Program-made: the position numbers and the translations under genes
Assembly (NCBI GenBank): GCA_963931425.1
Contig: OZ007015.1
Span: 1,517,268 to 1,581,267 of the forward strand
Source of the DNA: Prevotella sp. CAG:1058
GTDB taxonomy: Bacteria; Bacteroidota; Bacteroidia; Bacteroidales; Bacteroidaceae
DNA: 64,000 bases
Reading direction: 5' to 3'
In this document: piece after piece, positions 23,953-27,546 of the stretch
Layout: each line of letters starts with the position of its first letter
Numbering within the stretch: position 1 is the first letter of the stretch
The notes under the pieces: generated by a model
Database searches by the model: none
Told to the model about the DNA's origin: nothing
What the model saw: only the letters and a program-made list of their open reading frames with translations

Positions 23953-25283
23953 TTCAGCAAGTTCTTTTCTGCCTGTTCGGCTTTTTTGAATGTGAATCCT
24001 TCGAGTATAGTGTCCATGAGGGCGCTTATCCTGTCGTTGCACAGATTGCCTATCGAGCCTTCGTGCGTATGGTGTATGTTCTTGTCGGGCGTGAATCTGC
24101 CGGCCTCGATGTCGAGTCCCACCTTCTTGTAGGCGTCGCGGAAGGGCATGCCTGAGGCGGCTAGGCGGTTGACTTCCTCTACCGAGAACATCAGGTCGTA
24201 GCGCTTGTCGTCGAGTATGTGCTCGTTCACTTCCATTCTGTTTATTATGTAGGCAGCCATGCGCAGGCAGTCTTTCAGTTCGTCGAAGGCGGGCAGGAAC
24301 TCCTCTTTTATTATCTGAAGGTCGCGGAAGTAGCCCGAGGGCAGGTTGTTCATTATCAGCGTAATCTGCTGCGGCAGCGCCTGCAGCTTGTTGCTCTTGG
24401 CGCGTATCAGCTCGAACACGTCGGGGTTCTTCTTGTGCGGCATGATGCTGCTGCCCGTTGTGCACTCCTTCGGCAGCTTGACGAACGAGAAGTTCTGGCT
24501 GTTGAACAGGCAGGCGTCGAACGCCATCTTGGCCAGCGTGCCGGCAACTGAGGCCATTGCGAAGGCCGTGCTGCGCTCGGTCTTGCCGCGTCCCATCTGT
24601 GCGTACACCACGTTGTAGTCCATGGTGTCGAAGCCCAGCAGCTCTGTCGTCATCGTGCGGTCGAGAGGGAACGACGAGCCATAGCCCGCCGCGCTGCCCA
24701 GGGGGTTGCGGTTGGCCATGCGCCATGCGGCTTGCAGGAACAGCATATCGTCGGCCAGGCTCTCGGCGTAAGCCCCGAACCACAGGCCGAACGAACTTGG
24801 CATGGCCACCTGCAGGTGGGTGTAGCCGGGCATGAGCACGCCCTTGTATTGCTCGCTCTTTTGCAGCAGTTCGTCGAACAGGCTCTTCACGAGCTGCACT
24901 ATCTCCTTTATCTCGTTGCGGATAAACAGTTTCAGGTCAACCATCACCTGGTCGTTCCTTGACCGTCCGCTGTGGATTTTCTTGCCCATGTCGCCAAGGC
25001 TGCGCGTGAGCATCAGCTCCACTTGCGAGTGGACGTCCTCTATGCCTTCCTCGATTACGAACTCGCCTCTCTCGCACGTGGCGTAGATGTCCTTCAGCTC
25101 GGCAAGCAGCTGCGCCAGCTCGTCCTTTTCGAGCAGTCCGATTGACTCCAGCATGGTGATGTGCGCCATGCTGCCCAGCACGTCATACTTGGCCAAGTAC
25201 ATATCCATCTCGCGGTCGCGGCCAACGGTGAAGCGTTCAATCTCCTTGTTTATGGAGAAGTTCTTTTCCCAGAGTTTGTTCAT
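23949..25283 (-). CDS. argH: Argininosuccinate lyase
   Basis: MNKLWEK start, EDVHSQVE, HSGRSRNDQ, MPGYTHLQ, TGSSIMPHKKNPD, SGYFRDLQ. Confidence 0.96.
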   Translation of the reverse strand: MNKLWEKNFSINKEIERFTVGRDREMDMYLAKYDVLGSMAHITMLESIGLLEKDELAQLLAELKDIYATCERGEFVIEEGIEDVHSQVELMLTRSLGDMGKKIHSGRSRNDQVMVDLKLFIRNEIKEIVQLVKSLFDELLQKSEQYKGVLMPGYTHLQVAMPSSFGLWFGAYAESLADDMLFLQAAWRMANRNPLGSAAGYGSSFPLDRTMTTELLGFDTMDYNVVYAQMGRGKTERSTAFAMASVAGTLAKMAFDACLFNSQNFSFVKLPKECTTGSSIMPHKKNPDVFELIRAKSNKLQALPQQITLIMNNLPSGYFRDLQIIKEEFLPAFDELKDCLRMAAYIINRMEVNEHILDDKRYDLMFSVEEVNRLAASGMPFRDAYKKVGLDIEAGRFTPDKNIHHTHEGSIGNLCNDRISALMDTILEGFTFKKAEQAEKNLLK

Positions 25284-25334
25284 TGTTTGTTTTATTGTAG
25301 TTGGCGGACAGGCTTGCGTGATTGTGAGTAGCGG

Positions 25335-25508
25335 AATAGGACAAATAAGGCTGATGAGCCTAATGGGCTTCGCGTGACGGGAGGGTGCTCGTCGGTTGTT
25401 GCTTATTAGCTTGTGGCTCGTTCCTCGTTTGCTTGTCCCTTGTCTCTTGTCTGCTCGTCTCTTGTCTGCTCGTCTCTTGTCTGCTCGTCCCTCGTTTGCT
25501 CGTCTGCT
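25335..25508. repeat. Composite short tandem repeats: four 9-mers (25335-25370) plus a CT(C/T)GT 7/8-mer array including GTCTCTTGTCTGCTC x3 (25442-25486)
   Basis: AATAGGACA AATAAGGCT GATGAGCCT AATGGGCTT, then three exact 15-mers with degenerate flanking copies. Confidence 0.85.
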
Positions 25509-25513
25509 AAAAA

Positions 25514-25924
25514 TCAATACGGCAGCATTGCCAGTGCGTCGGCTATTTTGTCTACGCCGTCTTGCAGTTTGTTGCCGAGCATGGGCTTCAGGAACAGCGG
25601 AATGTCGGCCTTCACCGTCACGCGCATCTTGCACGTGGTGTCGGTTACAGGCAACAGCTGCACCCAGAGGTTGAACGGCACGGGCGAGTTCTCCGTTTCG
25701 AACTTGATGCACTTAGGCTCGTCCCTGTCTACAATCCTCAGCTTTATGCTGCCCACGGGCGCCACGTTGACACTTACCGAGTCGCGGTCGAACGCCAAGT
25801 CCTTCACTTGGTCGGCCGGGATGCGGTCTTTTATTCTCTCTATGTTGTTCAGGTCGCTAAGCGTGTTGTACACCGCCGTCTGCGGATGCGGTATTTGCTT
25901 AACGCCGCTTTCGTATTTGCTCAT
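25514..25924 (-). CDS. SRPBCC/START-like (CoxG-like) protein
   Basis: 136-aa beta-rich fold, VYNTLSDLNNIE, IPLFLKPMLGNKLQDGVDKIADAL C-terminal helix. Confidence 0.8.
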   Translation of the reverse strand: MSKYESGVKQIPHPQTAVYNTLSDLNNIERIKDRIPADQVKDLAFDRDSVSVNVAPVGSIKLRIVDRDEPKCIKFETENSPVPFNLWVQLLPVTDTTCKMRVTVKADIPLFLKPMLGNKLQDGVDKIADALAMLPY

Positions 25925-25940
25925 TGTTCTAAAAAACAGC

Positions 25941-25972
25941 AGCCCCTCCCGTCCTCCCCCAAGGGGAGGGGC
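25941..25972 (+). repeat. REP-like hairpin, left end of the cassette
   Basis: AGCCCCTCCC-GT-CCTCCCC-CAA-GGGGAGG-GGC. Confidence 0.85.
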
Positions 25973-26068
25973 CTGATTACAGTTACTATAATGTTAATGC
26001 GGCAGACAGCCTTTCAGGGTTGCTTGCCAGTGTGTTATCCGCACGATTGCTCACTTTTACGCAAATGG

Positions 26069-26461
26069 TTAATCCCATTCTATTTCATCACCTTTCTCTC
26101 GGAGGATTTTATATATGTCCTCTTCGTTTTCAATCAAGGATATAATGATGTCGGCAAAGCGTTTAGCCCTTTCCTCGTTTTCTCTGGTGTCTTCAAAATA
26201 GGCTGCGTATGAACCTGCTTCTGGGTCGCTCTCCATGTTTTCTAAAATGTCCGGCGCGTTTTTCGCGAGGTAATAGTTGAAGAATGCGTCCCAGTTGTAC
26301 CCGTTCATGTATGCCTCTTCGTTTATCTCATTCATCCGCTCTCCTATTGCCAATATCTTTTCGGCCTCATTTTCGAAGAGCAGGACGATGCTTCCAGAGT
26401 CATTTGCGTAAATTTTGACATATTCATTATTGAAAATGTCTCTTTCTCCTGTTGTTGACAT
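26069..26461 (-). CDS. Orphan immunity protein, Imm51-like
   Basis: YMNGYNWDAFF..YL...APDILENMESDPEAGSYAAY resembles the Imm51 NGYxW/DPEAG signature. It is acidic and AT-rich, with its own -7 box TAACTTTG at 26551-26544. Confidence 0.72.
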   Translation of the reverse strand: MSTTGERDIFNNEYVKIYANDSGSIVLLFENEAEKILAIGERMNEINEEAYMNGYNWDAFFNYYLAKNAPDILENMESDPEAGSYAAYFEDTRENEERAKRFADIIISLIENEEDIYKILREKGDEIEWD

Positions 26462-26606
26462 GATTATAGTAAGATATAAATATATTGCGAAAACCATAAA
26501 TGTAACTATTGGGATGTCAATAGACTTTTTGGCGAAACTTTTGCAAAGTTACTATAATTTTATTGTTTTTATATGCGGATAATGTAGGTTTAAATGCAAC
26601 CTTCAA

Positions 26607-26640
26607 GCTCCTCCCCACTGGGGAGGTTGGGAGGGGGGCT
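26607..26640 (-). repeat. REP-like hairpin, right end of the cassette (inverted relative to 25941)
   Basis: The reverse complement reads AGCCCCCCTCCC-AA-CCTCCCC-AGT-GGGGAGG-AGC. Confidence 0.85.
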
Positions 26641-26641
26641 T

Positions 26642-27274
26642 TTACTTCTTCCAGTTTGCCGGGTCCTTGCGCCACTCGTGCAGCAGCTCAACGTCTTTCT
26701 CCGAGATGTAGCCAGTGGCTACAGCCTCCTCGACCACGTGCTCGTAGTCAGTCAGGGTGACGAGCGTCACGCCGGCGTCTTCGAACGCCTTCTTGGCAAC
26801 GGGGAATCCGTAGGTGTAAGATGCCACCATGCCTACCACCTCGAAGCCTGCCGCACGCAGGGCCTCTACGGCCTTCAGGCTGCTGCCGCCGGTAGAGATA
26901 AGGTCCTCGACTACTACCACCTTGGCACCTTCGGGTATCTCGCCCTCTATCAGGTTGCCCATGCCGTGGTCTTTAGCCTTGCTGCGTACGTAGGCGAAGG
27001 GCAGTCCCAGCTCGTCGGCCACCAGCGCACCCTGGGCTATCGCACCCGTGGCAACGCCGGCTACTGCCGTGGCCTCGGGGAAGTGCTCGAGCACGGCGTG
27101 TGCCAGCTCCAGCTTGACGAAGCTGCGCAGGTCGGGGAACGACAGGGTCTTGCGGTTGTCGCAATAGAACGGCGACTTCCATCCCGAAGCCCATGTGAAG
27201 GGGTTGTCCGGTTGCAGTTTTATCGCCTTTATCTTTAGCAGTTTAGATGCCAATGCTCTTTTCAGTGTATCCAT
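26642..27274 (-). CDS. pyrE: Orotate phosphoribosyltransferase
   Basis: FTWASGWKSPFYCDNR, GVATGAIA, KDHGMGNLIEG, VVVEDLISTGGSS. Promoter TTTG-N19-TAACTTTG at 27359-27329. Confidence 0.97.
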   Translation of the reverse strand: MDTLKRALASKLLKIKAIKLQPDNPFTWASGWKSPFYCDNRKTLSFPDLRSFVKLELAHAVLEHFPEATAVAGVATGAIAQGALVADELGLPFAYVRSKAKDHGMGNLIEGEIPEGAKVVVVEDLISTGGSSLKAVEALRAAGFEVVGMVASYTYGFPVAKKAFEDAGVTLVTLTDYEHVVEEAVATGYISEKDVELLHEWRKDPANWKK

Positions 27275-27431
27275 GTCTGTAAGTTTTATTGTATTTAAAT
27301 AATGTACATGTATGTAATTTACAAGCTGCAAAGTTACGTTTTTTGGCGTGTAAAACAAAATAAATCGCCTTGTTTTTGCCTAAAAGCGGCCGGCATCGCC
27401 CCTTTTTTGCAACATGGCTGCACCCGTGTGT

Positions 27432-27546
27432 GCAAGCCCTTGATATTCAACGCGTTGCAAACTGAACTGCGGATGAACCCCAAAGACCGTCTTTTACTTT
27501 CCAAAAGGCCACCTTTTGCAAACGTGCTGGTTTTCAGTATGTTTGC
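27432..27546. repeat. 22-bp-period palindrome array, copy 4 (anchor 27432-27458; units 27481, 27503; second anchor 27518-27546)
   Basis: GCAAG-CCCT-TGATATTCA-ACGC-GTTGC, CAAAGACCGTCTTTT, AAAAGGCCACCTTTT, GCAAAC-GTGC-TGGTTTTCA-GTAT-GTTTGC. Confidence 0.85.

Follow-up and report, generated by a model that had tools for sequence, protein, structure and literature searches.

What occupies the gap between pyrE and the SRPBCC-like gene that follows it in Prevotella sp. CAG:1058? We analyzed a stretch of 64,000 nucleotides from this genome (contig OZ007015.1, positions 1,517,268 to 1,581,267), referred to as the window. Read on the minus strand, the locus consists of pyrE, 1 base, a hairpin unit (REP-R; REP, repetitive extragenic palindrome), approximately 640 bp of AT-rich DNA with an open reading frame (ORF) of 130 amino acids, an inverted hairpin unit (REP-L), 16 nt and the start of the SRPBCC-like gene. 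A preliminary description of this DNA had proposed that the hairpins and the orphan immunity gene between them form one cassette, mobilised by a transposase in trans. Its coordinates and gene calls for the AT-rich unit of approximately 700 bp between inverted hairpins were right in every particular that we checked. We arrived at another account of its origin. The 700-bp interval is probably a composite of two unrelated things, namely a pair of hairpins and a stranded solo Imm51 cassette of the rAID-1 type.

Orphan immunity genes are believed to influence which bacteria survive contact-dependent gut warfare. Most descriptions to date place them in arrays on mobile elements or beside a dedicated recombinase. 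Here, a cassette with readable boundary motifs lies within a housekeeping gene pair, in a genome with neither array nor recombinase.

Identity of the enclosed gene

The ORF matched the Pfam family Imm51 (PF15595), as had been supposed from the letters. The match had E = 9.6e-32, took in profile positions 2-103 of 104 and scored 109.4 bits where the cutoff is 29.8. The tryptophan (in NGYNW) and the Dx[DE] motif (in DPE), listed as conserved Imm51 residues by Zhang et al. 2012 (PMC3482391), were both found in the translation. Members of the family neighbour Tox-RES or Tox-URI1 toxin genes and have been recorded in polyimmunity loci (PMC3482391). There was no toxin or transposase gene near the locus, in agreement with the preliminary description, and no RES-domain protein was matched in the whole genome. 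By analogy with its family, the product would neutralise an incoming Tox-RES- or URI-type toxin delivered by competitors.

The interior is poor in guanine and cytosine (GC; 38.6% overall, 41.5% in the ORF and 27% in the 5' leader) when compared with pyrE (59.7%, the value of about 60% given before), the SRPBCC-like gene (55.5%) and the genome (47.6%). The comparison of the window gene with an array copy (see below) gave a dN/dS of 0.05 with a dS of 1.2. The Imm51 gene is under strong purifying selection and, given this low ratio and the dS, is old relative to the sampled arrays. The window variant was seen at one genomic site only.

A second orphan Imm51 gene is present in the same genome (G000:C1:1827088-1827567, loci L002/L004). 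It is 55% identical, GC-rich (approximately 55%) and has an N-terminal extension. It lies outside the window, between the genes of a 706-residue protein, which by its N-terminal sequence we take to be a TonB-dependent receptor, and a 435-residue protein, presumably a MATE-type transporter. It has neither the hairpin repeat nor the cassette core and is also missing from the 40 relatives described below.

Relation of the interior to recombinase-associated arrays

The nearest non-self homologue was P0008, a multispecies Bacteroidales array protein with 87% amino acid identity, and none was found between 87% and 97%. The P0008 genes sit in recombinase-associated polyimmunity arrays. The Imm51 gene directly follows a tyrosine recombinase in Paraprevotella xylaniphila (L035), and in Bacteroides oleiciplenus (L038) it lies between Imm9 and Imm44 genes, behind SUKH and DUF2750 genes. 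Ross et al. (10.1101/471110) included the array of Paraprevotella clara YIT 11840 (L036) among the rAID-1 clusters that they studied; such clusters have a XerD-like recombinase, genes of at most 41% GC and, between the genes, repetitive sequences like those of integrons.

Homology to the array copies in DNA was 83% and covered the ORF with 62 nt of 3' sequence (26007-26464). From array to array we found the same cassette with sharp boundaries and different neighbours. Its 5' boundary reads ...ACATTAT/CCGCAATAGTAAAACAAT...ATG, where the slash marks the edge, and its 3' boundary consists of GCGGATAACAC, a hairpin and then CCCATTA/. These motifs were derived from the retrieved arrays and not from the figure of Ross et al. 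At the 5' boundary in the window, ACATTATCCGCA and the leader lie at 26585-26550 (local alignment scores of 36-44 vs shuffle maxima of 28-34); the motif and leader also precede Imm51 in arrays L035, L036, L037, L038 and L039 and in a solo copy, L043. The 3' boundary in the window consists of GATAACAC, a hairpin and ACATTAT at 26039-25988. The intergenic repeats of arrays L038, L035 and L036 are built alike, with GATAACA, a hairpin and then AACATTAT or CCCATTA.

The features of the interval and its neighbours are listed below (positions in the window, strand, description).

26642-27274, minus: pyrE (orotate phosphoribosyltransferase), upstream core gene; Pribosyltran match with E = 1.9e-13; stop codon at 26642-26644
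26610-26641, minus: REP-R, the right hairpin unit, AAGCCCCCCTCCCAACCTCCCCAGTGGGGAGG; 32 nt, beginning 1 base past the pyrE stop
26586-26609, minus: inner extension of REP-R, AGCTTGAAGGTTGCATTTAAACCT; like the extension TTGAAGTTAGCTTTG, present on only a subset of repeat copies in the relative G019, and weakly like the sequence 5' of the L043 solo cassette
26574-26585, minus: remnant of the 5' cassette core, ACATTAT/CCGCA, the boundary motif of rAID-1-type cassettes
26462-26573, minus: AT-rich leader, with 27% GC over 26462-26605, holding TAACTTTG
26544-26551, minus: TAACTTTG, candidate Bacteroidota -7 box, 83 nt upstream of the ATG; promoter function predicted
26547-26558, minus: upstream copy of the 12-nt direct repeat ATTATAGTAACT
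26069-26461, minus: Imm51 orphan immunity gene, 130 amino acids
25988-26039, minus: 3' attC-like element, consisting of GATAACAC, an imperfect hairpin and then ATTAACATTAT; architecture as in the array intergenic repeats
25981-25992, minus: downstream copy of the direct repeat ATTATAGTAACT, overlapping the 3' core
25972-25987, minus: inner extension of the left hairpin, AGTAACTGTAATCAGG (gene strand); weak, by-eye likeness to the GATTGAAGTTAGC-type extension of G019
25941-25971, plus: REP-L, the left hairpin unit, AGCCCCTCCCGTCCTCCCCCAAGGGGAGGGG, inverted relative to REP-R
25925-25940, minus: GCTGTTTTTTAGAACA, the 16 nt that separate REP-L from the start codon of SRPBCC; peculiar to the cassette allele, with TAAAGTT in their place on the cassette-free one
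25514-25924, minus: SRPBCC-like gene, downstream core gene with its start codon at 25924, beside pyrE genus-wide

The SRPBCC-like protein matched Polyketide_cyc2 weakly (E = 1.6e-4, 22.5 bits, under the cutoff of 27.4). Both copies of ATTATAGTAACT in the 3.63-Mb genome are in the unit, where they bracket the promoter, the ORF and the attC-like element. An Rfam scan of 25000-27500 with E values up to 1 gave no match.

The ATG in the window is preceded by approximately 95 nt, holding TAACTTTG, that are not in the array copies. No convincing homologue of this leader was found elsewhere in the genome, in the retrieved loci or in 400 genomes of the order; short A-rich matches (query positions 560-600) were rejected as cassette core.

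[quoted passage not shown] The best tblastn match for an array-type recombinase in our genome was 26% identical and located elsewhere, in a proxy search with the frameshifted recombinase ORFs of L035 in place of the B. fragilis reference BF9343_RS08045. Of the three features published for such systems, two are thus lacking in the window (a recombinase, and a second gene beside the one ORF, which has 41.5% GC), and the third, the boundary repeats, is present. For this reason we speak of a cassette of rAID-1 type and not of a rAID-1 system. Judged from its boundary motifs and homology, the interior is a gene cassette of this type. This contradicts the earlier proposal of a capture route distinct from integrase-associated immunity arrays.

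Another solo Imm51 cassette outside any array, with its boundary motifs intact, was found in a metagenome-assembled genome of an uncultured Bacteroides (L043, 3001-3393). It sits between a TetR-family gene and a HU-HIG gene and has no hairpins. Stranded cassettes of the rAID type may not be rare.

Alleles of the pyrE-SRPBCC site

The Imm51 gene was missing from 40 relatives, 24 of them of the same genus. Both neighbours were present at 26 loci from 25 species of the genus, and there pyrE and the SRPBCC-like gene stood side by side, 2-248 bp apart and without Imm51. The expectation that the gene would not be conserved at this site was thus borne out. Further, a metagenome scan for the 3' end of pyrE gave many more cases of a short spacer, only from other species (SRPBCC 37-78% identical); their contigs contained no hairpins or Imm51, and no further alleles of the own species were obtained. 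The scan confirmed the short spacer as the ancestral state. Spacers of several other species (L026, L267, L179, L184, L191, L010, L015) held unrelated palindromic inserts, or inserts like miniature inverted-repeat transposable elements (MITEs), of 60-240 nt, and small hairpin elements seem to favour this spacer as a general hotspot across the genus.

Alleles of close relatives were found by exact-protein look-ups. The long allele measured 715-720 bp and was nearly identical in all carriers. The short, cassette-free allele was present in conspecific metagenome contigs of a sister clade; it measured 138 bp and consisted of REP-R, a 75-nt AT-rich spacer and REP-L. This is the bare hairpin doublet that the preliminary description had suggested looking for. 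It folds as a single hairpin (-78 kcal/mol, z = -9.2). The outer 20 nt of REP-R were the same in both alleles, including a linker that varies among repeat copies, and from the REP-R loop to the SRPBCC start codon the alleles differed throughout. We detected no homology between the two interiors, and the short allele was rejected as a deletion derivative of the long one on this ground.

The long allele was present in all 23 contigs with the exact PyrE protein of the window. Contigs with the other PyrE type had the short allele in 22 cases out of 23 and the long allele in 1 (L351). The cassette is fixed in one clade of the species complex. Contigs with the long allele had pyrE genes 87-98% identical to that of the short-allele contig L127 (window-type and L127-type pyrE differ by approximately 12%). 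Diversity among the long alleles was near zero from approximately 40 nt before the pyrE stop to approximately 230 nt inside the SRPBCC gene, and the edges of this tract, that is the breakpoints in pyrE and SRPBCC, differed between contig pairs. In the recombinants L122 and L351, flanks of the short-allele clade surrounded a long-allele tract that reached no further than 45 nt upstream of the pyrE stop on one side and the SRPBCC ATG on the other, and the 16 nt outside the hairpin pair travelled with the cassette.

Since a nearly identical tract stands on backgrounds with pyrE differing by up to 13%, and since the tract continues past the hairpin pair, the spread took place by homologous recombination: the cassette moves between clades through the flanking core genes. 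The same near identity across backgrounds suggests a gene-specific sweep of a defence gene by ordinary homologous recombination. As the exchanged tract takes in 16 nt beyond the pair, its ends do not coincide with the hairpins, which are not the ends of a moving unit either. The idea of a REP-bounded unit of transfer is not supported here, as the replaced tract passes the left hairpin and reaches the SRPBCC start codon.

Several other observations were made around the site. The conspecific contigs (L115-L131, L336-L354) were strongly mosaic, with pyrE differing by up to 13% where the SRPBCC genes were identical in DNA. The content upstream of pyrE varied among conspecifics (a cluster of adhesins of the type IX secretion system type, ABC/DUF3836 genes, or an ISL3 remnant with Peptidase_C25). 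On the other side, the spacer between SRPBCC and argH (window 25424-25505) holds a tandem repeat with a 15-nt unit, GTCTCTTGTCTGCTC, in approximately 4 copies. This repeat had small insertions in contigs of RNA libraries from other samples, and the length of the spacer among metagenome contigs was approximately 64 vs 215-230 nt.

The hairpin repeats

The two hairpins are inverted, with the C-rich tails outward, and share a three-part GC-rich motif. Its core, CCTCCCC-N2-6-GGGGAGG, occurred 2 times in the 64-kb window vs 0 in 100 shuffles. The three-part motif had 4 copies in the genome, which is a single contig; 2 flank Imm51 and 2 are distant singletons. With only 4 copies, the repeat is not an abundant REP in this genome. 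Across 60 other species of the genus the copy number ranged from 0 to 90. Among strains, REP-R varied by 2 nt in its C-run and REP-L in the lengths of its G/C-runs. Both singletons (G000:C1:1634740-1634830 and 1716440-1716560) adjoin a repeat of AGTTAA/GGAGTTA-type words around a short hairpin, and an element of this type also fills the 248-bp pyrE-SRPBCC spacer of the relative G001 (L023).

The sampled species with the most similar SRPBCC protein was G019. The repeat unit there, AGCCCCCTCCYRACCTCCCCGAGGGGAGG, occurred as singlets, direct tandems and at least 10 convergent doublets, and had a sharp outer (left) edge, usually against A-rich sequence, often TAA. The doublet spacers measured 20-320 nt, were non-coding and were unrelated to each other in sequence and length; the doublets had no consistent target-site duplication. 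The unit was embedded in mosaic clusters with other repeats in G066, and was nearly always a singlet in G045 and G062. The hairpins are a genus-wide intergenic family like REPs and bacterial interspersed mosaic elements (BIMEs).

Besides the window pair, no close inverted pair enclosing a gene was found in our genome, G019, G045, G062 or G066. Two wide pairs in G019 (1.8 and 2.3 kb end to end) were rejected as cassettes, with the repeats in neighbouring spacers around core genes; one of them encloses a DUF559-like gene along with core genes. Elsewhere in G019 (L314, G019:C65:2400-5100, at 1764-2141) an ORF of 125 amino acids lies between genes for subunits of a 2-oxoacid:ferredoxin oxidoreductase, with the hairpin repeat directly alongside. 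From its sequence we take the product to be a DUF559-like (Vsr-fold) protein, and the ORF looks like a small selfish insertion in the operon.

We weighed on these data the mobile unit that had been proposed, in which hairpin, cargo and hairpin move together as a REPIN (an inverted REP doublet) or a MITE with a passenger, driven in trans by a transposase of the HUH/RAYT kind (RAYT, REP-associated tyrosine transposase) or another one, and capture single immunity genes. Several observations fit it. Of the four copies in the genome, two stand inverted to each other on either side of the gene, the two alleles combine common hairpin ends with unrelated interiors, as expected if the ends recombine, the short allele forms a perfect REPIN-like long hairpin with TAAA on both sides, and inverted doublets are common in the nearest sampled species. 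The profile of Y1_Tnp (PF01797), however, had no match in our genome or in the REP-rich relatives G066 (99% complete), G062 and G076, and the repeat was found within approximately 1.5 kb of 0 of 10 Y1_Tnp loci in relatives. Mobilisation by a RAYT is not supported by this result. Nor is there support for REP pairs as cargo cassettes: no other close pair surrounds an ORF in the five genomes, and the repeat occurred at 0 of 80 loci of Imm51 homologues. Also against this alternative are the single site of the Imm51 variant, the lack of a target-site duplication in the long allele, the transfer between clades of 16 nt outside the pair, and the mutually unrelated doublet spacers of G019, so that doublets are not replicating as units. 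We consider a single mobile unit quite improbable.

Transcription across the interval

Two contigs from RNA libraries of gut samples covered the interval. One, of 1659 nt, extends from pyrE across Imm51 and reaches the SRPBCC gene, and the other, of 1164 nt, covers the SRPBCC gene to the end of pyrE. One RNA sample also showed the short-allele junction. The contigs are consistent with transcription across both hairpins. The role of intrinsic terminators was rejected for the hairpins, as these contigs cross both and REP-R has no T-run. The box TAACTTTG, which the preliminary description had pointed out as a promoter, may serve as Imm51's own promoter. A scan for sigma-70 promoters and terminators gave generic matches only, Bacteroidota promoters being outside its coverage.

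These results bear on a further alternative, in which the hairpins came after the cassette, colonised both of its edges independently (stop codons, A-rich borders) and are now structures at transcript ends or stabilisers. The positions of the units would suit such a history: the left edge of the G019 repeat regularly abuts A-rich sequence, often TAA, and REP-R begins 1 base past the pyrE stop. On the gene strand REP-L is a strong stem (-23.6 kcal/mol) with a T-run 3 nt downstream, and different small palindromic inserts occupy this spacer in other species. It would not explain why the sister clade has the doublet at the same position without a cassette, with the outer 20 nt of REP-R identical down to the variable linker. 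Further, two independent late insertions around one gene are improbable with four genomic copies, and the RNA contigs cross both hairpins. Late arrival of the hairpins is in our opinion very unlikely.

Probable origin of the composite

In the composite account that we prefer, an inverted pair of REP/BIME-like hairpin repeats of approximately 32 nt occupies the pyrE-SRPBCC spacer. Between them lie approximately 600 bp of foreign AT-rich DNA, made up of the 5' core, a leader with an added promoter-like segment, the Imm51 ORF and the 3' attC-like palindrome. Most likely a doublet was there already, and the cassette either integrated into its AT-rich spacer or replaced that spacer. A recombinase supplied in trans could have brought this about by site-specific recombination, or the event could have been illegitimate recombination. 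Since the host has no rAID-1-like recombinase, RES toxin or Y1 transposase, we regard the cassette as a stranded solo copy.

A number of points weigh against this account. Two of the four genomic repeats flank the cassette, and we roughly estimate the odds of a random landing in a spacer of approximately 100 nt at about 1 in several thousand, counted over intergenic positions; chance accounts poorly for the association, for which our account supplies no cause. The alleles share their hairpin ends and nothing inside, so the long allele is not a simple insertion into the sampled short allele. Moreover, the two alleles diverge in the inner half of REP-R and in the loop and linker of REP-L. In the window, the hairpin of the attC-like element is degenerate, and its fold (-14.1 kcal/mol) is no better than those of shuffles. 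The RNA evidence consists of assembled contigs of RNA libraries, possibly with DNA carry-over. Finally, Imm51 is a family defined by prediction, and we found in the literature no experiment tying any Imm51 protein to a toxin (PMC3482391; 10.1101/2020.10.15.341461).

The non-random association of hairpins and cassette is what a further alternative would account for. There, the doublet is an active landing pad: a cruciform or hairpin stalls replication or mimics a folded recombination site, and cassettes or other foreign DNA enter preferentially. The association would be causal, and the hairpins would not travel with the gene. The doublet indeed occurs at the site without a cassette, and the cassette retains both recombination cores. 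The direct repeat ATTATAGTAACT, unique to this place in the genome, brackets promoter, ORF and attC-like element as a crossover core would, and the short-allele spacer contains GTATTAT, which resembles the ACATTAT core. Set against this, there is one example of the landing pad, the hairpins do not resemble the rAID core in sequence, the host has no recombinase, and the long-allele interior retains nothing of the short-allele spacer. In addition, the solo cassette L043, which is outside arrays, has no hairpins. A landing pad is possible but doubtful.

In its boldest form, this would mean that inverted doublets are landing or exchange sites for integron-like immunity cassettes, with an escaped rAID-1 cassette caught here between the hairpins of a structure-directed recombination hotspot, which the common ends and unrelated interiors of the two alleles would mark. 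We put this forward tentatively and think it unlikely. If it were true, core operons could take in defence genes singly, and homologous recombination could afterwards let these sweep through a species complex. Do such repeats attract foreign DNA? The association with 2 of the 4 hairpin repeats gives a lead on this question. Further, the natural, nearly isogenic pair of alleles, with and without the gene, could serve to test the function of Imm51.

Comparison with known systems

We compared the composite of hairpins and cassette with the systems that it resembles. As a member of the Imm51 family (PMC3482391), the window gene has the full-length Pfam match and the conserved W and Dx[DE], and differs in having no adjacent Tox-RES or Tox-URI1 toxin gene. 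By analogy, its function would be that of any orphan immunity gene of the AID/rAID kind.

The rAID-1 clusters (Ross et al. 2019, 10.1101/471110) are like the window in their low-GC orphan immunity genes, the window gene having 87% amino acid identity to an array cassette that is found, among others, in Paraprevotella. They also share with it the core and leader of the 5' boundary and the repetitive, attC-like intergenic element on the 3' side. The window differs in that it has one gene and not an array of at least two co-directional genes, and no XerD-like recombinase beside the cassette or in the genome. Its cassette lies inside a housekeeping gene pair, bracketed by an unrelated family of hairpins, has an extra promoter-like leader of approximately 95 nt and spreads by homologous recombination of its flanks.

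Integron cassettes at secondary sites present the same order of a promoter-poor ORF and an imperfect palindromic recombination site, with short conserved core boundaries and a stranded copy away from the integrase. In contrast to them, the recombinase of the source arrays is XerD-like and not IntI, the core sequences are others, and site-specific integration is in our case only deduced.

The REP, BIME and REPIN elements of Escherichia coli and Pseudomonas, with their RAYTs, are likewise short extragenic palindromes, rich in GC, that lie between genes of one direction. Singlets, tandems and inverted doublets all occur in them too, and the cassette-free doublet of our site folds as one long hairpin, as a REPIN does. 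The present family differs from them in having four copies in this genome, no RAYT in the genome and none beside the repeat in relatives; the doublet spacers, unlike those of REPINs, are not conserved between copies. We know of no described REPIN that carries a protein gene. In summary, the arrangement of hairpins and cassette, of which we found no description in the literature searched, is a new combination of known kinds.

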